This document shows positions 1 to 22,795 of a stretch of 39,135 nt of DNA, in pieces. The stretch's first letter is position 1; each line of letters starts with the position of its first letter. The translations under genes were made by a program, and so were the position numbers. Below the pieces are notes generated by a model, which was not told the DNA's origin, made no database searches, and saw only the letters and a list, made by a program, of their open reading frames with translations. This stretch comes from Catajapyx aquilonaris (Eukaryota), in the NCBI GenBank assembly GCA_000934665.2, contig JYFJ02003661.1, positions 1-39,135 on the forward strand, given 5' to 3'.

Positions 1-96
1 TATAGCCATAATTATTGCAAAGGTTACTACTAAATCAATGAGTCACTCCTATGGAAAAGTCTTTCATAACCTGAGCAACGCCGGGTATCCTGCTAG
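1..96 (+). mobile_element. Probable Helitron 3' terminus (rest of element off-window)
   Basis: CCTGAGCAACGCCGGG (70-85, GC-rich hairpin-like) is followed after a few nt by CTAG|T (93-97), the typical Helitron 3' end. The 5' TC terminus is not visible. Confidence 0.5.
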
Positions 97-99
97 TAA

Positions 100-113
100 C
101 AATGATAATAATG

Positions 114-160
<47 letters not shown>

Positions 161-169
161 CATCATCAT
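100..169. repeat. (AAT)n/(CAT)n microsatellite in GARS intron
   Basis: Directly visible trinucleotide run ending about 10 nt before the acceptor at 178-179. Confidence 0.95.
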
Positions 170-179
170 GTTTGAATAG

Positions 180-3100
180 GGTGATTTGGTGAGGCGGCTG
201 AAAGCAGAAGGGGCGCCGGAGCTGGACGTAAAGAAGGCTGTGAATGAGCTGAAGACTAGGAAGAAAGCTCTGGATGAAAAAGAACTGGCTCTAGCGCCGA
301 GGGAAGAAGGTGACACGTTTGATCGGGCGCGAATGGAGGATCTGCTCAAGAGGAGGTTCTTCTTCGACCAGTCCTTTGCAATCTATGGAGGTCAGTGTCT
401 GTCTGATTTGTGATTGGCAGTATTTACAATAGTTTTGCTCATTTAGGGATAAGTGGGCAGTATGACTTTGGTCCCATGGGTTGCGCTCTCAAGACCAACA
501 TTTTGAATGCCTGGAGGAGCTTCTTCATCTTGGAGGAGCAGATGCTGGAAGTGGATTGCTCTGTTCTTACTCCTGAACCAGTCTTGAAGTAAGTCATTTT
601 TGTGCTCGTTTGTAATTACATTTACTAACTTACATGTTGGGAATTAGGGCGTCTGGCCATGTGGATCGGTTTGCTGACCTTATGGTAAAAGATATGAAGA
701 ATGGGGAGTGTTTCCGCCTGGATCACCTGATCAAGGCACACCTGGAGAAAGTTGTGAGTGACAAGAAGAGTTCTCCAGAGACAAAGGCCGAGTGTGAGAC
801 CATTGTGGTTCAGGTCAGTATCACCTACTGCAAGGGAAATTGCTCCTTTCATATCCCATTTTATAATTAGCTACTTGACAATGTAACACCGCAGTAACAC
901 CTAAAGACAGGCATTAATTATTTTATCCCAGGGTTTCAAAGACTATTTTTAGATCACTAGAGAAATTAAAAGTTTCCATACATACTATTAGTTACTAGTT
1001 GGTAGGAAGCAGTAGTGGTGTAGTGGATATGGTGTCCGACTGCTAATCGGGAGGTCCTGGGTTCGAGTCCCGGAGGCCGGCGGTCCTGACCTTGGTTTTC
1101 TGTGGTTTTCCAAGGTCACTCCAGGGAAATCCCGGGATCGTACCATTATATAGGCCACAGCCGCTTCCTTCCTTTCCCTGGAGGAGGCGCGGTGTTCGGT
1201 GGGGGGCTTCCGGCCGCGCCTAGGGGGGTGTCTAAGCTTGGCCCCCTGAGGGACTGCACACGGCCCCCACCACAGGACAACGCACTGCACCTTTGTTCCG
1301 CCCTCCCTATCCCTTCCCTGTCCCTGCACCGGTGAGATTGAAAAAGTTAGAAAAATGGAGGAGATCTCCTCCCCCTGCATTGGCCAATTGGTCTCAAGGG
1401 GGATCCCAAATAAATAAATAAATAAATAAAAGTTACTAGTTGGTAGTAATGTGTATGTTTCTCCCTCAGTTGGATGGCATGACCAAAGATGACATGAAGC
1501 GGATAATGGTCAAGTACAACATGAAATCTCCAATAACTGGCAATGACTTGTCTGATCCCCTTGAATTCAACCTCATGTTTGGCACTCAGATTGGACCAAC
1601 GGGACAGGTCCAAGGGTCAGTTAACAACCGAAACATAATTCAATTATTCTTCATTTGCTCTTTTTTAAAAACCCTTCTAACCTGCTAAATAGATTTCTTC
1701 GGCCAGAAACAGCTCAAGGGATTTTTGTAAACTTCAAACGCCTTCTGGAATTCAACCAGGGGAAGCTTCCATTTGCTGCAGCACAGATTGGAAATGCCTT
1801 CAGGAATGAGATTTCACCTCGATCTGGACTCATTCGTGTCAGGTAATTGACATTCAAATAACTAATGCGCATGTTAGATGTGTTCTCATGAATGCATGAA
1901 AAGGTTACCATGTGAAATAATAAGTCAAGTCATTAATATCTTCAGTCAATTGACAGTCTGGGAAGGTGAATGTGCTCTTGCATAGTATTATTAACAAGTG
2001 TAATTATATTTCCAGAGAATTTACTATGGCTGAAATAGAGCACTTTTGCGACCCTACTGAGAAGCAGCACCCAAAATTTGAAGATGTCAAGGCCACTCAA
2101 ATGTTGTTGTATTCTGCCTGCAATCAGATGGACGGGAAGCCTCCTGTTTCGATGTCAATTGGAGAAGCTGTTGGATCTGTAAGTAATATTTCACAATATT
2201 TTCACATGCCGGCAGTTTATTCTAAGTGGGCAATTTTGTAGCGTAGTGAACACTTTGGGGTGTTGGAGAATAGAGAAGATGTGGAGGCTCTGGACAGATA
2301 TCTGTCTAGTCGGAGTTACATCATTGGTTATGGGCCATCCCAAGCTGATGTGTCTGTGTTGGAAGCATTGAAGAAAATGTGTCCAGGGGACAGTGGTCCA
2401 CCACCCAATGTCCTCAGGTGGTCTCATCACATCTGCTCTTTGAAAGAGAAGTGGAGAGACTTTCCAGGCAAAAAGGGATTAGGGTTGGATGAACTCTGCA
2501 AGGAATTGTTTGGGAGCAGCCATGTGCCAAAGCAGGTGCTAGTCAAACTTGTCAGCATTAGTTTGTACCATCCGAAGAAAAAGTTGGTGCATAGTTAATT
2601 AGTAATGGAGTAACTCCTCTAGAGCCGACAGTGCTTTGATTAAAAGAAACTTGCTTGAATCGAAACTAAGCAGAAAAATTATTCGTTTGTTGCGGGTTCC
2701 TCTTTCTGCGGAACTACTTGTAGCAACGCACCTACCTTTTCCACTTGATGGTCTTGTGTTGCTCTTGTATGAATTTTTAAATTTTTTATTAATTCTCTAT
2801 GAGTTGCATTTTTATTGAATTTGGATGAGCTCTTGACAGATCTAGTGTAATAAGCAAGTTGATTACATAGATTAATGAATAACCTTGATATTTATGAGAT
2901 GCTATCATATATTAGTGAATTATTTCACACTGCAGTGGTTACCCAGCTAATTTAGGGCATTACTTTCTCAAGGGGGGCAGCCTACAAGAGGGGGAAAAAG
3001 TCAGGTGCAATACCATCCCATATTTGGTTGTGTATTGCCAGCCTGAAACTACATTGACATTTTGTGTTTTTTTTTTTCTCATAAAGGACAATTTTGCTTT

Positions 3101-5092
3101 CAAAGTATGTATTTGGCATGTCATTTGGTGTCTGGTATTTTTGTAATGTAGTGTGAGTAGAGCCAAAACCTCTAATTCTCTAATCCCCCAAAAATGATAT
3201 TCAGTTTTTCTGCACTGCTTGTGGAGACTTGTCTGAACATGTAGCCCATGCAAATCACTGTGTATTAATTTGTGTTTTTCTTATCTATTAGGGTCTGGTT
3301 GCAAATGAGACTTTGGGCTACTTTATGGCTCGCATCCACCAATTCCTGGTGCGCATTGGCGTGAATGAGAAGAGGTTGCGCTTCCGGCAGCACATGGGCC
3401 AGGAGATGGCCCATTATGCAACTGACTGCTGGGATGCAGAGTGCCTGACTTCTTATGGCTGGGTGGAGTGCGTTGGGTGTGCTGATCGCTCAGCTTTTGA
3501 TCTTACCCAGCACACAAAAGCAACTGGAGTCAGAATGGCTGCAGAAAAGAAGCTCTCCACACCTGTTGTCAAGGATTTTGTTGGTTTGTTGGATTGCTTG
3601 AACTTATTTTGTGCAAATGGACATGCATACATGCTTGAAACAAGTCTACATAAAATAATTGTCTTGTTTAACAACTTGCAGAGGCCCAGCCAAACAAAGG
3701 AGTAATCGGAAAGGCATTTAAGAAAGAGGCCAAATTGGTCATGGATGCATTGATAGCACTAGACGAAGAGGGCTTATCCAACATGGAGCGAGATCTGGAG
3801 CACACTGGGTTAGTTGATGGTATTAGTAACACCACTTATTGTTCCTCAAATTGTCTATTTACACTTTTGAAAATTACAGGAAATATGCAGTTACCACTGG
3901 CAGTAACAGTTATGAAGTAACCAAAGAGATGGTGGCTGTCAGGAAGTACCAGAAGACTGTACATGTCGAGGATGTGATTCCCAGTGTTATTGAGCCATCC
4001 TTTGGCATTGGGCGTGTCATGTATGCCTTGTTTGAACACAATTTCCGCTCCAGAGATGATGAACAGAGAACAGTAAGTGCCTCTCATCCTAATTTGACGC
4101 TTATCAGTCAAAATTATATTTGTGTAAATTGGGAAGATGGGTGGAGATAGAGGGACACATGACTGTCCATTGTGAAAAGATAATGTAATTAGTGTGTTCC
4201 AAGTGAAGCGTTCTTAGTGGTTATGATTTTTTGAAGACCTAAGCTGTTCTGTTGGAAGAGCATGGATCTATCAAAAATATTGCCATATTAGAAAAGCATG
4301 TTTGACAACTTGGAAGAACGAGACAAGGATCCTGTGTGTGCTAACCACTTTGGACCTCTAATTTCAATCCTTGGTTGCCACAATCTACTGGCAGTAGTTG
4401 CTTCTGAGAATGACTACTGTAATTTACGATGTCTTTTTTTGTTTACAGTACTTTTCGCTCCCACCATTGGTGGCTCCTCTCAAATGCTCCGTACTTCCAT
4501 TGAGCAACAACACCGAGTTCCATCCACTGGTGAAAAGAATATGTACGCACCTTTTTAGACTGAATTATCTAAGTGTCTGTCACTATGCAAACTTTTGTTT
4601 CCTTTGCAGCAAGAGAGTTAACCAACGTGGATGTGTCACACAAGGTTGATGACTCCAGTGGATCCATTGGGCGGAGATATGCAAGGACAGACGAGATAGC
4701 AATCCCATTTGGTATCACGATTGACTTTGACAGCCTCAAGGAGCCACTGTCAGTTACGCTGCGGGAAAGAGACTCTATGGGTCAAGTGAGACTCCCGGTA
4801 TGTGAACTAGTAATGTTGCCAATCACCTCAAGAAAAACCTGGGGTGGAATTTTCGTCTATGCAGTAACTATCAGTGGGACGAAAATTCCATCCCTATTTA
4901 TAAATTATTAGTGAAATGTCTGTAACACAGGGTGACCTTGCCAATGTCTGCAATTAATAGCAACTACATACGATTTCATTTCAGGTGGATGACGTTGCCA
5001 ACGTTGTACGTGACCTGTCCTTAGGTCGCCTGACTTGGAGACAGGTGGAAGCAAAGTATCCCAAATTTGAGCAGCAAGAGTCAACCAAATGA
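180..5092 (+). CDS. GARS1: Glycyl-tRNA synthetase (5'-partial). Exons 180-390, 447-588, 648-813, 1470-1615, 1693-1842, 2016-2178, 3292-3583, 3682-3808, 3880-4072, 4449-4542, 4610-4797, 4985-5092
   Basis: WHEP-like start ([25 protein letters not shown]), then [62 protein letters not shown] and the anticodon-domain [11 protein letters not shown]. All junctions are GT-AG with consistent phase; TGA at 5090-5092. Confidence 0.97.
1006..1430 (+). mobile_element. tRNA-derived SINE in GARS intron
   Basis: tRNA-like head with A-box-like TAGTGG...GG and B-box GGTTCGAGTCC, a GC-rich body and a (TAAA)n tail. Perfect 16-bp target-site duplication AGTTACTAGTTGGTAG at 990-1005 and 1431-1446. Confidence 0.92.
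2242..2535 (+). CDS. Putative alternative (cassette) exon of GARS encoding an EF1-beta N-terminal/GST-C-like domain (98 aa)
   Basis: TTTTGTAG acceptor (2240-41) and CAG|GTGCTA donor (2536); 294 nt, phase 0/0, open in the GARS frame. [40 protein letters not shown]...[11 protein letters not shown] resembles EF1-beta GFGDL..[36 protein letters not shown]. Confidence 0.72.
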
Positions 5093-5160
5093 TGAGGGAA
5101 CGACAAATGCAATTTTGAAAATGGAGATAAAGATTGATAGAAAAATGGAACCATATCCTT

Positions 5161-5589
5161 TTATTCCTGTTTCTGCTTTAGATACAATGCTTGACAAACA
5201 GTCCATATTGGGATGTCGGAAATGGGAGGGATCCCATTCGCAGGTTTCGGCTTTGGTGTGTAAATAGCATGCTGATCCGTGAAGGTCCGAGTGTCATTAA
5301 ATGCTGGTACCATAGTCAAGTTTGTTGCTGGGTATATGCAGAATGCAAATAACCACAATATCACACTCACTGCAACTGGAATAGCAATTGCCCAGTACTT
5401 TTGTGGCCAGTAAGTGAAGCCCATAGCCACCAGCCATGGTGCTGGAATATATGCCCAGCACAAGTACAAACACATGCAGCTCATAGAGACTACGTATAGG
5501 CCAAATCCATACACAGCACGGCCTGGTGTTGGTGCTGGGCTGTGTTCAGGTGGTTCTAAGATGTGGTCAGGAATCCTTCTGTTACTCAT
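5161..5589 (-). CDS. PIGP: GPI-GlcNAc transferase subunit P, intronless, 142 aa
   Basis: PEHSPAPTPGRAVYGF, YLCWAYIP, GFTYWPQKYWAIAIP and IPPISDIPI are PIG-P family motifs; two hydrophobic segments. Confidence 0.93.
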   Translation of the reverse strand: MSNRRIPDHILEPPEHSPAPTPGRAVYGFGLYVVSMSCMCLYLCWAYIPAPWLVAMGFTYWPQKYWAIAIPVAVSVILWLFAFCIYPATNLTMVPAFNDTRTFTDQHAIYTPKPKPANGIPPISDIPIWTVCQALYLKQKQE

Positions 5590-6002
5590 AGCGAGAACTG
5601 GTCCATTGTTTCAGTGACTAGCGACAACAGATCAAAGAAAGATGTAACACTGGTCCGCAAATTCCGCAGATTTTTAGATTCAAAGTGCCTGTTGGAATGA
5701 ATAGGTTAAGAAATATTCAGGGACAAATCTGAAGGGTCTGGCGTTGATACGTACGCTTTCAAAATATTGTCTTGGACTGACAGCTTCTTTGTGACTCCTC
5801 CTCTGACTGGTTCTACATCAACACGTAGAGCATCGTAGGCAATCTTTGCTTGTTCTGCTTCTGGGAACGGCACCTCCAACAACCTGCGTAAAAATTCAGA
5901 ATAGTTTTACGCAACCGCTTACTGCATTTTATGCTTCAATAGTGCTAGTACCAAAGACGTGTGAATATCTTACAGTTCAGCTGGTGCGTCGCTGGCTGCC
6001 AT
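5586..6002 (-). CDS. LAGE3: KEOPS/EKC subunit Pcc1/LAGE3, 86 aa. Exons 6002-5974, 5883-5755, 5688-5586
   Basis: Spliced translation: MAASDAPAELLLEVPFPEAEQAKIAYDALRVDVEPVRGGVTKKLSVQDNILKAHFESKNLRNLRTSVTSFFDLLSLVTETMDQFSL. Matches the Pcc1 pattern (VPFP..A.IA..L..D.EP; LR.SV..F.D.L.LV..TM..F). Two GT-AG introns; 261 nt total. Confidence 0.9.
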
Positions 6003-7456: not shown

Positions 7457-7636
7457 AGGTGTGTTGACATGTGAGCAATTTGACGAGCAAAGTCTTCACC
7501 AAGCGATATCATAGCTGAGTAACCAATATCGGTTGAGGTAACAATAGATTTTCGCCTCAAACAATACTGGTTACTCAGTGATGTTATCGCTCAGCAAAGA
7601 CTTCGCTCATCAAATCGCTCACATGTAAACGCACCT
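7457..7636. mobile_element. PIF/Harbinger-like palindromic MITE, copy 1
   Basis: Termini AGGTGTGTTGACATGTGAGC ... GCTCACATGTAAACGCACCT, long imperfect arms and TTA on both sides. Related copies at about 15.5 kb and 21.9 kb. Confidence 0.8.
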
Positions 7637-9221
7637 TTATAGTGTGCTGATCACAAAGCAGGCTGGGAAACTGAGGAGGAATAACAGCTACCCTTGGTTG
7701 TGTCTGCCCACATTTGTTGGAATTCCAGATGTTACGCTAGCAATATAAAGTGCAGTGCAGTCAGCTGGAGGCCTCAACTGATTTGCTGCCATAATGATGA
7801 GTTTGGAAAATGATTACCATGTCCTGATTTACACTTAATGTCAATCAGAATGTTCAGTGCTGCTAATTTACTACCACGTAAAAAAAAATAATCAGAGAAC
7901 TCGATCTATACCAGCGATTTGGAACATGTCCATATGGCATGATTAGCACCTCAGTTCTAACAGTAAGTCGCTCTCGCTTATTGCATTCTCTTACTGTCTT
8001 TGAATTTGTACAAAACAAGCAGAGAATGGAACATACTGATCTGCCTTATTTGTACAGTCATGTGTCAGTGATACTCTGCTCAGTCCCTACTAGACTTCAT
8101 GGACAAATATGCTTACCAAAATCTGTGCTTATAGAATCTTTAACCCAAACTCAGCAGGGTTGTAGTGCCTCAGCTATAATTTTTTTTACAACAGAACGCA
8201 GCATGACTTTTGTCTGATAAGTGCAGCCTATACCAGTGGTATCATGCTTTGATCATATTTACCCTCATGACTTTTATAAGCAGAAATTGTTTACTGGAAT
8301 GACATCATCATCGTCAGAAATGTTTGTTCGTGACTAGCATGAGACTGGTAGTACTTGTTACAGCCCATCCTTTACTGCTTTGCAGCATCTGGAAAAGACC
8401 ATTGAAGCGGTCAATCGCAAAACATTTGAAACCTCCATTTTGTGCTTTCCAGCACCATTTGTAACAAAAGTGCTCTCCAACATAAGTGAAGTTTGAGACC
8501 ATTTTTATCATGGCTGACAATGGCTTAAGAACTGGGCATAAAATGTTAAAATTGTCCTCTGAATAACTTAGACAAAAGTGAGACTGAATGATCATTTAAA
8601 ATAGCTTCTACAGTACATTCTACAGCATTTTTAGATGCAGAGTTCATCTCTAATTTATAACTTAAAAATAACTTAAGATGTTTTAATTCCAGTTCTATAT
8701 ATAGTAACTTGTGGAGAGATTTTTCACAACTGTTTTCTGCAAGATCCACAAACATCCACAAAAACAACTCTGGATATCACAAGACTTATCTCAAAGCTGA
8801 CCTCTTCATTTTTATGTAACTATTCACAGAAACTGAAAAAAAAACCTGCTATTGACACAACCACTCTGAATAACTGATCAATATTTGTTATTAAACTGCA
8901 TTTTATTTTATGTTTATTACATTGTCAGGTATTTAATTTAGGACAATCTTCTTTAAAACCTTATTGCCATACTTGACATCAGAATACATAAATTCCAATA
9001 AGGTCAATCGATAGCACTGCAGATAAGTGAAATAATATCACCCCATGTGCCCAAACAACATCGCAATACAGTTGCTGGTCATGTAATCATGTTTTGTAAC
9101 GAATATGATCTTAATGTCATCTTAAACACTTTATATAGGTATAAACACTTTACAGTTGTTTAACTTGAGTTTGTTTCTAATTACAGGTACAACTTTGGTG
9201 TAATCATCTCCGGGCAAAAAA

Positions 9222-12343: not shown

Positions 12344-12919
12344 TCAGAGACCCAAAAGTGTTTCGAATGCCATCAGTTGCTTCACAAATCCATCATTTGG
12401 TCTAGCTGCTGGCCTCTTATCCTTCACAACTATGTAAGCATCCTTGTATTTCATATTCGCAGATTCCATCAAATAGCCAATTGCAACAGCGCATGCTCTG
12501 GAAACTCCAGCATTGCAATGGACCAAAACATGACCACCTTTGGCCTCATTAATAAACTTGAAACACTCTGGAAAATATGCCAGTAGATCTGTCTCAGGGA
12601 GGTCCATAATGCTAACACATTTGTGCACAAAGCCGCTTGGAACTTGAACAGGGCAGAGGCTTAAAATGTGTGTAACAGAATGAGCAAGAAGTGTGGGCAA
12701 ATCAGCAGCTGCATCTTGTGATGATACGGACAGATGCGGAGTTATACATGCAACTTGCAAGTCTGGAGTCGGGTCAGAAACAAACCCTAAGGCACCAGTT
12801 GACTGCAATGTGACAACACCGTGATCGTCCGTAAATACAAGTCCATCACTGGTGGTTAAGCGGGTTTTGCTCGAGCGAAGAGCAGTCTTCTGTTTGGCTA
12901 TCATCTCCTGCAGTGACAT
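12344..12919 (-). CDS. DUSP19: Atypical dual-specificity phosphatase, DUSP19-like, intronless, about 191 aa
   Basis: Catalytic VHCNAGVSRA, DLPETDL and RPNDGFVKQL. N-terminus MSLQEMI..K..LR..KTRLTT..G and D.TPDLQV are DUSP19-like. An upstream in-frame ATG exists at 12958. Confidence 0.85.
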   Translation of the reverse strand: MSLQEMIAKQKTALRSSKTRLTTSDGLVFTDDHGVVTLQSTGALGFVSDPTPDLQVACITPHLSVSSQDAAADLPTLLAHSVTHILSLCPVQVPSGFVHKCVSIMDLPETDLLAYFPECFKFINEAKGGHVLVHCNAGVSRACAVAIGYLMESANMKYKDAYIVVKDKRPAARPNDGFVKQLMAFETLLGL

Positions 12920-14590
12920 CTTCTGGGTTGTATTCAACGTCAAGTAAAAACAGACCATGAGGTGGTGCTGGTATTGCCCTGGGATTCCAGCTTTTGATAC
13001 CCGGATTGTCCAGCATCCACTTTATGTCTTCTAGAGTGATCCGACCTGTGGCTGCAGCCACCAACGCACCAATTGTTCTCCGCACTTGCTTGTATGCAAA
13101 TGACTTCCCAGAAAACACTACATCAATGAATTCTGCATTTTGATACAGAGGATCATACTGGGCATCCAATAAAGGACGGCCTGATGTCACAACAACTGAT
13201 TCAAGATTTCGAACTGGACTCCGGATTGGGTTGCTTCCAGCTGCAGTGAAGGTTGTGAAGTCACGGAGGCCTGGAAACAGCTGTGCACCTTCCTTGAACG
13301 TGTCCAGGTCAAACGGGGGCATCAACACATGGCAACGGTTCCATTCTGACATTGGCACCAGTGCGTGAGGTTTGTACGTAGTACAGTATGAGGCATCACA
13401 TCCAGGCTTGAGTACAAGTAACCGGTATAGGTAACGTCTCCTTATGGCAGTATGGCGGGCATGAAAAGTGCTGGGGACGATTACAGTCTTATGAATTCTG
13501 GAAGTAAAATTTGATCATGTGTAAATATTATGGAGGAATTCATAATTAGTCTAAAATTTAAAATATGAACACTACACTCCAGTTGCTTTTACGAAATGGA
13601 AGTTATTACAAGTACACTACATGTGAAATTAACATTTTCATATGAATTTTCAATAATTTTTTTTTGTGTGTAAAAATCAAGGCATTCATGACCTCATTAA
13701 ATGAAATCATGAGGTTTTGTTGCCTTATGAAATTTTCATAAGGCATGTTTCTCTAATCTGCAGAGAGGTCTTGCAAAATTTTTAATGTTAAGGAATATTA
13801 TGTTCCGTGTTCTTAGATTATAATCCGTAACTTATATTTCCTGCAATTCAAATAGATATTTTTTCAGAACGAAAAAATATCTATTTGAATTGCAGGAAAT
13901 ATAAGTTACAGATTATAATCTAAGAATACGGACGTTTGGATGAATTTGTAATACGAAAGAGATCACCTGACTTCCCGGCTCTGGCGCTCAAAGTACTTGT
14001 TGAGAACAATGGTGAGTGACTTGGGATCATAGTGTGCCTCAGGGGCTTTGGGGTGCAGGAGGTCCACATGGGCTGTTGTTCTCAGGGCATGGACACCCTT
14101 GTCAGTTCTGCAAGATCATCACAGTGAGAGAGCATCAATAGCGTAGAATATGAGATCAAAAAACTGATCAAACTTGTACCAAAAAAAATTTGCGTTTTTG
14201 CTTATTTTAAGTGAATGTGGTAAAATGCAATTTTCAACCCAATTTCTTGCGTTTTCAATTAATTTCAATTACTTGTTACAATAAAATGCCATTTTACTCT
14301 GTCAATAATTACCTGCTTGACGAGTAGACCCGTATCTCATTCGCAGGATTCACCTTTTCCAACGCCAACTCCAAAGTCCCTTGCACCGACAGTGGATCAG
14401 GTGATGACCTATCTGAATTTATATACTGCTTCTGAAGACCCCTAAATGAATGTTAAAATGAAAACAATGTAACTTGGGTGGGAAAAAAAATCAGCATCGT
14501 TAAAGCTCAGTGCATCATTCATTGTTCGTTACATTGCAATTACCTAAATCCAGTACCGATGTACGAGTAATACAACAGGTACCGCCTCAT
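12846..14590 (-). CDS. PUSL1: tRNA pseudouridine synthase-like 1 (TruA family), 322 aa. Exons 14590-14544, 14441-14313, 14107-13967, 13497-12846
   Basis: MRRYLLYYSYIGTGFRGLQ, catalytic SSRTDKGVHA, FHARH..RRYLYR, SFAYKQVRR and APPHGLFL. GT-AG junctions in phase. Confidence 0.92.
13804..13932. repeat. Near-perfect inverted repeat (62-bp arms, 5-nt loop) in PUSL1 intron
   Basis: 13804-13865 is the reverse complement of 13871-13932 with 2 mismatches; loop AGAAC. Confidence 0.95.
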
Positions 14591-15397: not shown

Positions 15398-15824
15398 CAG
15401 GGTGACTAATAAGTCAGGATACATATGCCAACTCAAGGGCCAACCGTATCGAACTAAAGGTGCGTTTACATGTGAGGGATTTGATTACGCCATGTCATCG
15501 CCGAGTACCCGAGTTATGATTGTCGCTCCAAACAATTGGATTCATCTCTCTGCGATGACATCGCGTGATCAGATAGCTCGCATGTAAACGCCGGTGAGCG
15601 ATTTGATCGCGCAATGTCATCGCCAAGTAACCCAAGTGACCAATATTGTTCGAGGCGAAAATCGATTGTTAATTTCAGCCACGGCGACTATTTCGCTCCG
15701 CTTCGCTCGTCAAATCGCTCACATGTAAACGCTGCTTCAGAGTCAATAATCTGCTAATTGGCACAACTGGAAACCACCAATACAAGCCAATTACCTATAT
15801 ATATCCTGACTTAGAGTCACGCTG
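15398..15824. mobile_element. Tc1/mariner-type MITE hosting a nested Harbinger-like MITE
   Basis: TA|CAGGGTGACTAATAAGTCAGGATA at the left; TATCCTGACTTAGAGTCACGCTG|TA at the right (imperfect TIRs, TA flanks). Confidence 0.65.
15458..15737. mobile_element. Harbinger-like MITE, copy 2 (longer, internally rearranged)
   Basis: TAA|AGGTGCGTTTACATGTGAG ... CAAATCGCTCACATGTAAACGC, the shared core GAGGCGAAAATCGA, and an extra internal terminus-like CATGTAAACGC near 15580. Confidence 0.7.
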
Positions 15825-16172
15825 TATCATGAAAAAATGTTTAACGTGTACGATGGATAGAACAATATAGACATTAATATTTAAATTTGACAAATGACAA
15901 ATCAATAGCCTGAATGGAGCTGTTGCTCAATAAAATGATCAATGGTGCAAATACAGGCCACTTCAACTTGCGTAAGTTCCACAACATGATGGGTAACTCT
16001 GAACCTTTAAAAAAAAATGCTATTTAGGCCTACTGCATTGATACCGTAGTCACTGGCGCGTAATGTTGAGAGTAAAAAGGGATAATCTGTGTACAACCCA
16101 CCAGAGGGTAGTAAACTGAGTGAGGGAATTAGCCTTGGAAGCGTTTCCATTGTAGACTGGTTTCTTGGTGGC

Positions 16173-16212
<40 letters not shown>
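16173..16212. repeat. (ATT)n microsatellite upstream of the first RER1 coding exon
   Basis: Directly visible. Confidence 0.95.
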
Positions 16213-16214
<2 letters not shown>

Positions 16215-20003: not shown

Positions 20004-22795
20004 CTAACCCAAGGGGTTTAACCCCGGAGTTGGCTTCTTGGCTATTCCAGACAGCAGCTTCTTGATCTCAGCAATTGCTCTTCCTGGGTTCAGACCCTGT
20101 GGAAAACAAGCAGTTTCATATCATTTGGGTTTTAAAGGAAGTTTTGCTCTGGTACGCTGGTGTACATACGGTATGTGTAAGTACACCAGGAATTTAATCA
20201 GGTTGTCACATCTAGTACGTCACAAGTCAAAAACAAATTACTCATAGGGTTGCTGTTATCCCAAAATCAACCCATCATCATCTGAGGGCTTTATCTTGAT
20301 CCCAGGGCAAATGTGATAATTTCCAGCAACAATGTCATAGCAAAGATTACGAGTTACTGATTCATGCACATGGCGTGCACGTGGTGAACTTATCGCATGA
20401 CAACTCTGCATTTTAACGAGGGTATTATTGGATAAAGATAAGGCGGGCCAGGACAGTCATAAGATATTGGTTGGACTATGCCCTATATGTGCACACGTTT
20501 TCCAAGGTAGAGAAATTTCAATGCAGAACATATTGCCGCACTTCCATGAGGACTTTCAAAGTGGCTTATGAGTGATACGTTCTGTAACATATCTGTTGTA
20601 AGCAATTTGATGACATTTCACACAAATGGCCCTGAGTTTGGGAATGACTGGTTTAGACAAGCAGAAACCAGACAGGCCACAAAAAAAATATTGGAAGTTG
20701 ACCTCATTTTATTTCGCCCAATCTATTATCCCATGATAAGGTGAACCTTGTTGGGGAATGTTGTGTTTTCATTCAGTATCTTCTGATACATTCCGCTTGG
20801 TAAACTTTGTCTGGAAGTGGGCTACTGTGCATAGAGATTTATCTTTGCATTTGCCTGGAAATCTTAAGAAAACCATGGCTGGGATAGCCTGTGCCACATA
20901 CTGCAGCCGCATCATCCTGAATGGAAGCCAGATGCCTCGCTCACATAGGTACATTACTTACTAATCGTGGTTGTAATGCTGTTTGTTGTGTCCAACGTAC
21001 GAGTTTGATACGTACCTTGGGGCATGTCTTGGTGCAGTTCATAATGGTGTGACATCTGTAGACAGAGAAAGGATCTCTCATCTGGTCCAGCCTTTCTGCC
21101 GAGGCCTCATCCCTTGAGTCAATAATCCACCTGTAAGCCTGCATAAGCACGGCAGGCCCCAGATACTTGTCCCCGTTCCACCAATAGGACGGACAGGAAG
21201 TGCTGCAGCAGGCGCAGAGGATGCATTCGTACAGGCCATCCAAACTCTTACGGTCCTCCACACTCTGCAGATACTGCCGCTTGCCCATCACAGTCTCATC
21301 CTTACGCTGCAACCAAGGCTTGATGGAACGGTATTGCTCGTAGAAGTTAGTCATGTCTGGGACTAGGTCCTTCACCACATACATGTGTGGTAAGGGGTAG
21401 ATCTTCACTGGTTTTGGTCCACTGTCGACCTTACTGTGGAAGATGGAAATACGTTTATCACTACAGGTAGGATTATGCTTTTACATATTTGTTCCTGGAC
21501 GTGCAGGAAAGCGAGACTCTTACAATTGTTCAAATAATATCTTTCTGAACTCATTATTAAGTACAGTTGACTCCAGATATAACAGCCTCGGTTATGGACT
21601 TTCGGTTGTAACAGATTTGAAAGGCTGGTCATGGCATACTTCCATAAGGCCCTGTGTATTTTTACTCCTGATATAAGAGACTCATTCTCACCTCGGCAGT
21701 AACATACCTTTTTTTTGGCCCCTTGGCAGGAAAATATGCTGTTTTTTTTAATTATTCAACTTCCTTTCCCATGCGCAGTAAGGAGTGTGGAGGGGAGTAA
21801 TTTTCGCCTCTGTCACTGATCTAAAAATCACTTTCTGGTATATTTGGCGGATTTTTTTGGTCCTGCATAATTTACAGGTTAGATAATTTTGCCTTTTTGT
21901 GGATAGTTTCATTAAAGGTGTGTTTACATGTGGGCGATTTGACAAGTGAAGTCTTCGCCGAGCGATAACATTGCTGAGTAACCCGAGTATCCAGTATTGT
22001 TTGAGGCGAAAATCGATCGTTACTTTCACCTCATACAATATTGGTTACTCAGCGATGTTATCGCTCGGTGAAGACTTCGCTCACATGTAAACGCACCTTA
22101 ATAAATGCATTAGTGTGCATTATAAGCATATGGAAAGCAGAAAATTACTGTATTCGTTGCAAAAGTGGTGGTTTGGCTATAACAATCTCTTTTCCGTGGT
22201 CCCCGGTTATATCTGGAGTCAACTGTATGAAGGCAGTACGTAGGTGTCCTCACCAGATGCAAGCCAAGGTGTTGACTCCACCAATGTTCATAGCGCAAGA
22301 CCCGCAGATCCCTTCACGACATGACCGCCGGAAGGTCAGGGTTGGATCCACCTCGTTCTTAATCTTGATCAGCACGTCAAGGACCATCGGGCCACATCTG
22401 TCGCATTAAAAAAATGTGCAAAACATCCTCCAAAGCATCACCCCCTCAAAATTGGCAAACTTACGCGTTCATATCCACATCATAAGTGTGGATATACGGC
22501 TTTTCTCCAGGCTTGTCCGGATTCCATCTGTAGATTGCAAACTGCTTCATCTGCTTCTGAGGCTGGGTAGACGCCGCACATCTGTTCTGCTGGGGACACA
22601 TAATGAGATTATTCCAACAAAATCCAATACATATCACTTCAAACTTGAAATGCCCTTCAAAAGTTTCTGGCGCTAATATTAGTGCTACTTTAATTAGTCG
22701 CTAATTACGAGCCTGACCAGGGCCAGAGAGGAGGCTGCGACGGGGATCCGGCTCAGCAGAAGAGCCTTGGAACAGCCAAGAGAAGACATCGCCAT
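20004..22795 (-). CDS. SDHB: Succinate dehydrogenase iron-sulfur subunit, 285 aa. Exons 22795-22718, 22589-22465, 22397-22254, 21433-21016, 20096-20004
   Basis: [44 protein letters not shown] and [20 protein letters not shown]-terminal transit-like peptide. Confidence 0.98.
21564..22225. mobile_element. pogo/Tigger-type (Tc1/mariner) MITE filling most of SDHB intron 3
   Basis: Perfect 20-bp TIRs CAGTTGACTCCAGATATAAC / GTTATATCTGGAGTCAACTG with TA on both sides. Confidence 0.85.
21916..22098. mobile_element. Harbinger-like MITE, copy 3 (nested)
   Basis: TAA|AGGTGTGTTTACATGTG ... CACATGTAAACGCACCT|TAA. Its core is the reverse complement of the copy 1 core. Confidence 0.85.

Follow-up and report, generated by a model that had tools for sequence, protein, structure and literature searches.

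An intact EF1B-type module in a glycyl-tRNA synthetase intron of Catajapyx aquilonaris, a candidate optional exon

The DNA analysed here (to be referred to as the window) is a stretch of 39,135 nucleotides (nt) from Catajapyx aquilonaris, positions 1 to 39,135 on the forward strand of contig JYFJ02003661.1 (assembly GCA_000934665.2). Its first ~5.1 kb, on the plus strand, carry the 3′ two-thirds of the glycyl-tRNA synthetase gene (GARS, with GlyRS denoting the enzyme). One intron of this gene contains an open segment of 98 codons, which encodes a domain of the type found at the N terminus of the elongation factor subunit eEF1B-alpha. A preliminary description of this DNA had read the segment as a hidden cassette exon.

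Structure of the GARS gene

The exons of GARS are defined by a 2376-nt contig from the public run X1, which aligns to the gene with 0 mismatches and with all introns removed. GT..AG borders are found at each of the 11 joints. Because the contig lacks all 11 introns, X1 is treated here as derived from spliced RNA. The introns in this part of the gene are 56-1113 nt in length, six of the 11 measuring 56-98 nt. The longest is the one that holds the open segment (Table 1).

The exons on the two sides of this intron align to positions 289-342 and 345-436, respectively, of the human GlyRS chain, and the intron junction corresponds to the border between chain positions 344 and 345. Insertion II of human GlyRS spans His318-Asn349 and is peripheral, according to a passage of PMC4526224. 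The alignment places the GARS junction inside this insertion, provided that chain positions and residue numbers coincide. The preliminary description had put the segment between EAVGS and GLVANE, within the catalytic core. The position is upheld, but the reference to the core has to be softened, as the junction is in a peripheral insertion.

The best 120 GlyRS matches to the downstream exon (3292-3582) are at most 86% identical to it, and no close relative is among them. Those carrying names are all from arthropods (insects, shrimp, mite). Some of these protein models have unusual lengths. Among P0123, P0124, P0138 and P0122, two ladybird 'isoform X2' models and one cockroach model have ~1290 residues, twice the usual length, and a shrimp model contains the region of the 3292 exon twice (residues 1-96 and 297-393). 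Fusion or duplication in the gene models is the probable cause.

Two repeats are located in other introns of GARS. The intron 814-1469 contains a repeat with a tRNA-like head (window 1000-1250). The depth of its sequence words in X1 is ~4,300-4,900, compared to ~28 on the GARS exons. ARAGORN predicts no tRNA gene anywhere in the window, this repeat included; the repeat is probably a short interspersed nuclear element. A long AAT/ATT microsatellite is found at 94-169, within the first GARS intron that the window includes, and has an inverted counterpart at 16166-16213, 16 kb away.

Table 1. Positions of the GARS exons, of the intron with the open segment, and of the candidate elements in this intron.
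Feature	Position	Strand	Remarks
GARS exons	178-390, 447-588, 648-813, 1470-1615, 1693-1842, 2016-2178	+	from the X1 contig, offsets applied
GARS exons, continued	3292-3583, 3682-3808, 3880-4072, 4449-4542, 4610-4797, 4985 onward	+	from the X1 contig
GARS exon upstream of the intron	2016-2178	+	contig piece 2013-2178, cut +3; ends ...GEAVGS
GARS intron spliced out of the observed mRNA	2179-3291	+	joint 2178 to 3292, GT..AG, 1113 nt
Candidate mini-intron, 63 nt	2179-2241	+	shared GTAAGT donor, TTTTGTAG acceptor, CTAAG ~20 nt before the end
Open segment, 98 codons, eEF1B-alpha N-terminal-type (GST-C-like) domain	2242-2535	+	homologous part ~2251-2517
Read-through tail, 20 codons to the TAA at 2596-2598	2536-2598	+	contains CTT/GTCAGCA at 2550/2551
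ATTAAA	2639-2644	+	41 nt past the TAA; sole canonical poly(A) hexamer in 2500-3300
GARS exon downstream of the intron	3292-3583	+	contig piece 3292-3582, cut +1; begins GLVANE..., phase 0

The open segment and its borders

In the frame of the upstream exon, no stop interrupts the sequence between 2242 and the TAA at 2596-2598, which leaves 118 codons from stop to stop. The upstream stop of this open frame is the TAG at 2239-2241, which is part of the acceptor TTTTGTAG ending at 2241. A CAG/GT donor candidate is located at 2533-2537. The flanking GARS exons end and begin on codon borders, and therefore a 294-nt exon is frame-neutral. With the AG at 2240-2241, the phase-0 GT dinucleotides at 2536-2537 and at 2551-2552 both keep the frame of the host.

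These borders had all been anticipated. The preliminary description gave a 294-nt open segment with an acceptor and a CAG/GT donor, which are present in the sequence, and the X1 contig confirms the flanking exons and the intron. It also noted a leading intron of typical size, and 63 nt is within the range of the introns of this gene. The assigned phase, 0/0 like the flanking exons, is confirmed by the codon-border flanks and the frame-neutral length. Finally, if the donor is skipped, reading does continue to the TAA, as had been proposed. A truncated form is possible in this case, with the ATTAAA following the stop. This is a single hexamer, and it may be a chance occurrence.

The length of the frame alone is only mildly to moderately unusual. 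Sense frames of at least 118 codons are found in 60 of 5000 mononucleotide shuffles of the intron, and in 121 of 5000 first-order Markov shuffles. The segment is taken as non-random because it is homologous to the N-terminal domain of eEF1B-alpha.

Identity and predicted fold of the encoded domain

The 98 residues of the segment match human eEF1B-alpha, whose N-terminal domain is represented by the Protein Data Bank (PDB) entry 5DQS (chain D, deposited as 'Elongation factor 1-beta'), with an E value of 2.8e-11 over query residues 5-81 and chain residues 5-79. In tblastn searches, 27 of 27 full-length EF1B proteins (180-290 residues) match the window at 2251-2517, with a best E value of 2e-16, and they match nowhere else in its 39 kb at E<0.1. 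The best other match of an EF1B query has an E value of 0.11 and lies within a GARS exon. A HMMER search through 1.84 billion representative sequences finds 119 proteins at E<=0.001, the top match having an E value of 7.9e-10 and 49% identity, and no match exceeds 53% identity. The EF1 guanine-exchange domain is present in five of the 13 matches scanned with Pfam.

The nearest Pfam model is Arc1p_N_like (PF21972), with a score of 23.2 bits (E 8.7e-5), under the gathering cut-off of 27 bits. Genuine EF1B proteins with an exchange domain also score under this cut-off (P0002, 24.1; P0024, 26.3; P0040, 24.9; P0052, 22.3), which makes Arc1p_N_like a poor guide to membership of this subfamily. In word-index searches, the 98-residue query finds fish cysteinyl-tRNA synthetase (CysRS) alone among longer proteins, and the 118-residue query has no match among proteins of near length.

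The AlphaFold model of the segment, calculated with a 76-sequence alignment, contains five helices, with a mean predicted local distance difference test (pLDDT) score of 84.4 and a predicted template modelling (pTM) score of 0.76. Foldseek finds no structure in the PDB at E<=0.001, the E values being 0.14 or higher. All 50 matches listed by VIA-align are GST or GST-like (GST-C-type) domains, including those of EPRS, AIMP3, p43, Arc1p and EF1-gamma. Their Z scores are 5.9-7.3, and values below 8 are middling for helical models. The ESM Atlas matches, with scores up to 0.92, are all to clusters that are unnamed or labelled Arc1p_N_like or GST_C. The sequence match, the conserved columns (see below) and the predicted fold together support the EF1-beta N-terminal, GST-C-like character that had been suggested for the segment at the outset.

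Contacts between eEF1B-alpha and eEF1B-gamma in 5DQS involve the loop D21-V29 and the helix C50-I59, as given in a passage of PMC9458455. The loop aligns to SRSYIIGYG of the segment, with 5 of 9 residues identical, and the helix to 10 residues of the segment, with 5 of 10 identical (both counted manually on the 5dqs_D alignment). Judging from the conservation of these contact stretches, the segment is a putative docking domain for eEF1B-gamma.

Comparison with known EF1B-type modules

The segment resembles the N terminus of human eEF1B-alpha over nearly the whole domain, in its conserved columns and in its predicted helical, GST-C-like fold. The two stretches that contact the gamma subunit (those given in PMC9458455) are among its best-kept regions. 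Unlike eEF1B-alpha, the GARS segment has no start codon, is not followed by an acidic region or a guanine-exchange domain, and is located inside a synthetase gene. The loop before the third helix is also 3 residues longer than in the human protein.

Modules of this type recur on other synthetases, at the N termini of CysRS and threonyl-tRNA synthetase (ThrRS) and at the C terminus of alanyl-tRNA synthetase (AlaRS). The closest precedent is the reportedly alternatively spliced, elongation-factor-associating insert of human CysRS of Kim et al. 2000 (Nucleic Acids Res 28:2866), which is said to bind EF-1-gamma. Like CysRS, GARS has an EF1B-type module on an optional exon, or candidate exon, of a synthetase gene. 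Inclusion is documented for CysRS, however, whereas the one GARS transcript contig skips the segment. The N terminus of fish CysRS is 48% identical to the segment (34/71), and the two have YLSSRSY and GYGPSQAD in common. The fish module is N-terminal (residues 17-80 of 823), while that of GARS is within the catalytic domain. The CysRS cases are P0121 and P0015, and P0015 is 91% identical to the fish CysRS N terminus.

The ThrRS case is a gene on a eukaryotic metagenome contig (L001, 9956-12485, plus strand), in which an EF1B-alpha-type N-terminal module forms the first coding exon. This module scores 30.4 bits on Arc1p_N_like, above the cut-off, and exons for the TGS and tRNA_SAD domains follow ~1.1 kb downstream. 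This module (protein P0003) is 46% identical to the segment (33/71), with no gaps. Both have a long loop before the RW helix, and both are on an exon, or candidate exon, of their own in a synthetase gene. In L001 this is a Met-started first coding exon, whereas the GARS module is internal, has no starting Met and has GlyRS as its host.

The AlaRS case is a 193-residue protein fragment, P0113. Its residues 2-55 correspond to the C-Ala domain of AlaRS (5t5s_A, E 4e-15), and residues 78-156 are an EF1B-alpha-type module (5dqs_D, E 1.9e-9), followed by an acidic DLFG stretch. In contrast to GARS, the module is C-terminal here and has the acidic stretch after it. AlaRS is a further carrier of such a module that does not belong to the classical multi-synthetase complex. 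As in the synthetases with an appended module, that of GARS is on the sense strand and can be read in frame. It differs from the CysRS, ThrRS and AlaRS cases in lying between positions equivalent to human residues 344 and 345.

Preservation of the segment

No stop codon or frameshift is found within the segment. In the alignment of 76 sequences, it keeps all 11 of the invariant or near-invariant columns, namely the invariant D36 as well as L17, L21, S25, Y26, G29, P32, R59, W60, H63 and S66 (each conserved in at least 90%). A family hidden Markov model (HMM) built without the segment gives it 84.2 bits, rank 60 of 76, the members having scores of 66-120 with a median of 96.3. In a poorly resolved tree of 77 domain sequences, produced with a quick method, its tip branch has a length of 0.6 (median 0.42), so that the segment is not accelerated. 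It is part of a polytomy in this tree, with EF1B, ThrRS-linked and CysRS-linked modules; the donor gene of the module can therefore not be named.

The base composition is that of an exon. The GC content of the segment is 0.483, and that of third codon positions (GC3) is 0.51, compared to 0.485 and 0.53 in the GARS exons. The adjoining parts of the intron have intron-like GC contents (mini-intron, 0.333; tail 2536-2598, 0.381; remainder, 0.356).

Neither the 98-residue nor the 118-residue frame has a Pfam match to EF-1_beta_acid or EF1_GNE, and no poly(A) tract is seen. The LFGS at residues 89-92 recalls a motif of the EF1B acidic region, and no claim is made for it, given the missing EF-1_beta_acid match. 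Since no acidic or exchange domain follows, the segment is a clean single-domain module and not a decayed copy of a whole EF1B gene. An old EF1B pseudogene, processed or otherwise, that has stayed open by chance would be compatible with the intronic location and with the missing segment in the observed mRNA. Such a pseudogene is difficult to reconcile with the open frame, the 11 retained columns and the HMM score in the family range, with an exon-like GC3 in an intron of GC ~0.35, or with the lack of any acidic-region, exchange-domain or poly(A) remnant. Moreover, the segment differs from all known relatives at ~50% of its residues, and neutral decay over such a divergence would be expected to break the frame. 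A decaying pseudogene is thus highly improbable.

Where the ThrRS-linked relative has its start Met, the segment has a His, three base changes away from ATG. Together with a frame that is open up to the acceptor, this fits an internal exon. Another reading would make the segment an exon of a separate transcript, or one from an alternative promoter, that starts upstream within GARS and encodes either an EF1B-like protein of small size or the C-terminal half of GlyRS with an EF1B tag. The domain is a stand-alone N-terminal module elsewhere, but nothing direct favours such a unit in GARS. The first ATG of the frame encodes Met46, in the middle of the domain, and the 63-nt interval upstream has a single ATG in this frame, at 2206, which reads into the TAG before the segment. 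The window also contains no second EF1B-like exon. We regard a separate unit as improbable.

None of the repeats in the window overlaps the intron, and no sign of a transposon carrier is seen. Capture of EF1B pieces by a Helitron, as in the plant model P0009, was considered and has no support here. No Rfam family is found in window 1-6000.

Evidence for and against use of the segment

The default GARS mRNA skips the segment, as 2178 is followed immediately by 3292 in the X1 contig. The stretch 2302-3186 is covered by no contig of X1, in data that comprise one run and assembled contigs from which rare variants are dropped and some records are filtered out. Low-level inclusion, or expressed near-identical paralogues, may be compatible with the contig data.

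This skipping is the first of several observations that weigh against the segment being an exon in use. The second comes from its splice sites, which were scored with a log-odds matrix derived from the 11 donors and 11 acceptors of this gene. The donor CAG/GTGCTAG at 2535 has a score of -1.1, ranking 40th among the 81 GTs of the intron and below all 11 real GARS donors (0.3-9.3 in leave-one-out scoring). The acceptor at 2242 is undistinguished, with a score of -0.8 and rank 30 among 76 AGs. The relatives add a third. Both flanks are present in 117 of the best 120 GlyRS proteins, with a junction gap of 0 residues in 116 and of 5 residues in one. Therefore none of the 117, which are at most 86% identical over the query exon, carries a domain-sized insert at the junction, and none of the 120 has a blastp match to the segment at E<=1e-3. 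In addition, no close relative of the segment is found, the nearest proteins being 49-53% identical to it. Its intactness is equally expected for a recent copy of a source gene that has not been seen. Finally, the synthetase-linked modules compared here (CysRS, ThrRS and AlaRS) are all terminal, and that of GARS is internal.

Some of the splice-site evidence is more favourable. The acceptor score is inside the leave-one-out range of the real acceptors (-3.3 to 9.4). A second phase-0 donor, CTT/GTCAGCA, has a score of 4.7, ranks fifth among the 81 GTs and beats that at 2535. As the matrix is built on few sites, these scores establish the borders as usable and not as good. In terms of the cassette exon originally proposed, the sense-strand, phase-0/0 geometry stands, but its use is not borne out by the one contig, the 117 relatives or the donor at 2535.

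The segment may instead be silent, an EF1B-type domain exon copied at the DNA level fairly recently. It would have landed in the GARS intron with splice-like borders, would never enter mature mRNA and would have had no function so far. Its source would be the eEF1B-alpha gene of this genome or a module-carrying synthetase, and it would be intact only through its youth. Such a copy is quite possible. It accounts for the skipping, the weak donor and ordinary acceptor, and the absence of the insert from all 117 relatives. The host intron exceeds all others of this part of GARS in length, as expected after an insertion, and an intact frame, exon-like GC and an ordinary branch length suit a young copy equally. 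On the other hand, no source is seen, the best identity being 49-53% among the 1.84 billion representatives. A His at the position of the start codon next to an untouched core suggests differential constraint over a fresh copy of an N-terminal exon. It is also improbable that chance would bring a copy, in frame and in sense orientation, into one of ~20 synthetase genes, the class that recruits this module.

We tentatively favour an exon-shuffled docking module that is kept as an optional exon of GARS, with a confidence that stays somewhat short of even. This preference is based on three features whose combination would be hard to obtain by accident: the domain is undamaged, its placement in sense orientation is compatible with the frame, and its host belongs to the synthetase class that recruits it. 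If the optional exon is used, it may be included as a cassette that ends at the donor 2535 or 2550, or it may serve as a terminal exon with the TAA at 2596 and the ATTAAA at 2639.

Other features of the window

A frame of the PIG-P family is found on the minus strand at 5161-5610 (E 1.3e-32), tail to tail with GARS. It ends ~70 nt past the GARS stop codon at 5090-5092, and because the two frames end so close together, the 3′ untranslated regions of GARS and PIG-P may overlap.

Further along the minus strand, at 12344-13514, there are overlapping long frames. The one at 12344-13021 has a dual-specificity phosphatase domain, and that at 12846-13514 has the domain of a tRNA pseudouridine synthase. 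A near-perfect hairpin is located at 13804-13932, with two 62-nt arms that are 97% complementary and 5 nt apart; it may be an element similar to miniature inverted-repeat transposable elements. A dispersed repeat of ~130 nt has three copies, one of them inverted, with 74-88% identity (7485-7643, 15608-15743 and 21959-22105).

Proposed mechanism and significance

The steps of use and binding that we infer for an optional exon are as follows. A shuffled EF1B-type module would have been kept intact in the GARS intron as an optional coding exon. Splicing from 2178 to 3292 skips the module by default, as observed. In the alternative, the weak acceptor at 2242 would be used, after the 63-nt mini-intron. 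From here, the phase-0 donor at 2535, or the better-scoring one at 2550, would lead back to the exon at 3292, and insertion II, at the periphery of GlyRS, would gain 98 or 103 residues. Otherwise the transcript would end past the TAA at 2596, with the ATTAAA at 2639 as its signal, and the product would be a truncated, catalytically dead head of GlyRS bearing the docking domain. Either product could be tethered through the added domain to eEF1B-gamma or a similar GST-like hub.

A broader proposal can be built on this mechanism. An arthropod-lineage, splice-switched isoform of GlyRS would carry an eEF1B-gamma-docking domain in insertion II and tether glycine charging to the elongation-factor complex. 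It would be one case of a wider, undescribed placement of such modules on 'free' synthetases (Thr, Ala, Cys and Gly) in arthropods and other eukaryotes. We consider this proposal unlikely.

Appended GST-like and EF1B-like domains wire eukaryotic synthetases into multi-synthetase and elongation-factor complexes. GlyRS is classically a free-standing synthetase. The WHEP domain is the sole GlyRS appendage listed in passages of a review (PMC4394549). An EF1B-type domain in GlyRS was not found described in open-access papers and preprints.

The finding is of interest mainly if inclusion is shown. Use of the exon would give GlyRS its first EF1B-type module, and no earlier module of this type would be located inside a catalytic domain instead of at a terminus. 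It would also couple tRNA charging to eEF1B in a switchable manner. If the exon is unused, the segment would be a clean snapshot of exon shuffling before or without fixation, in a kind of gene that has repeatedly recruited this module.

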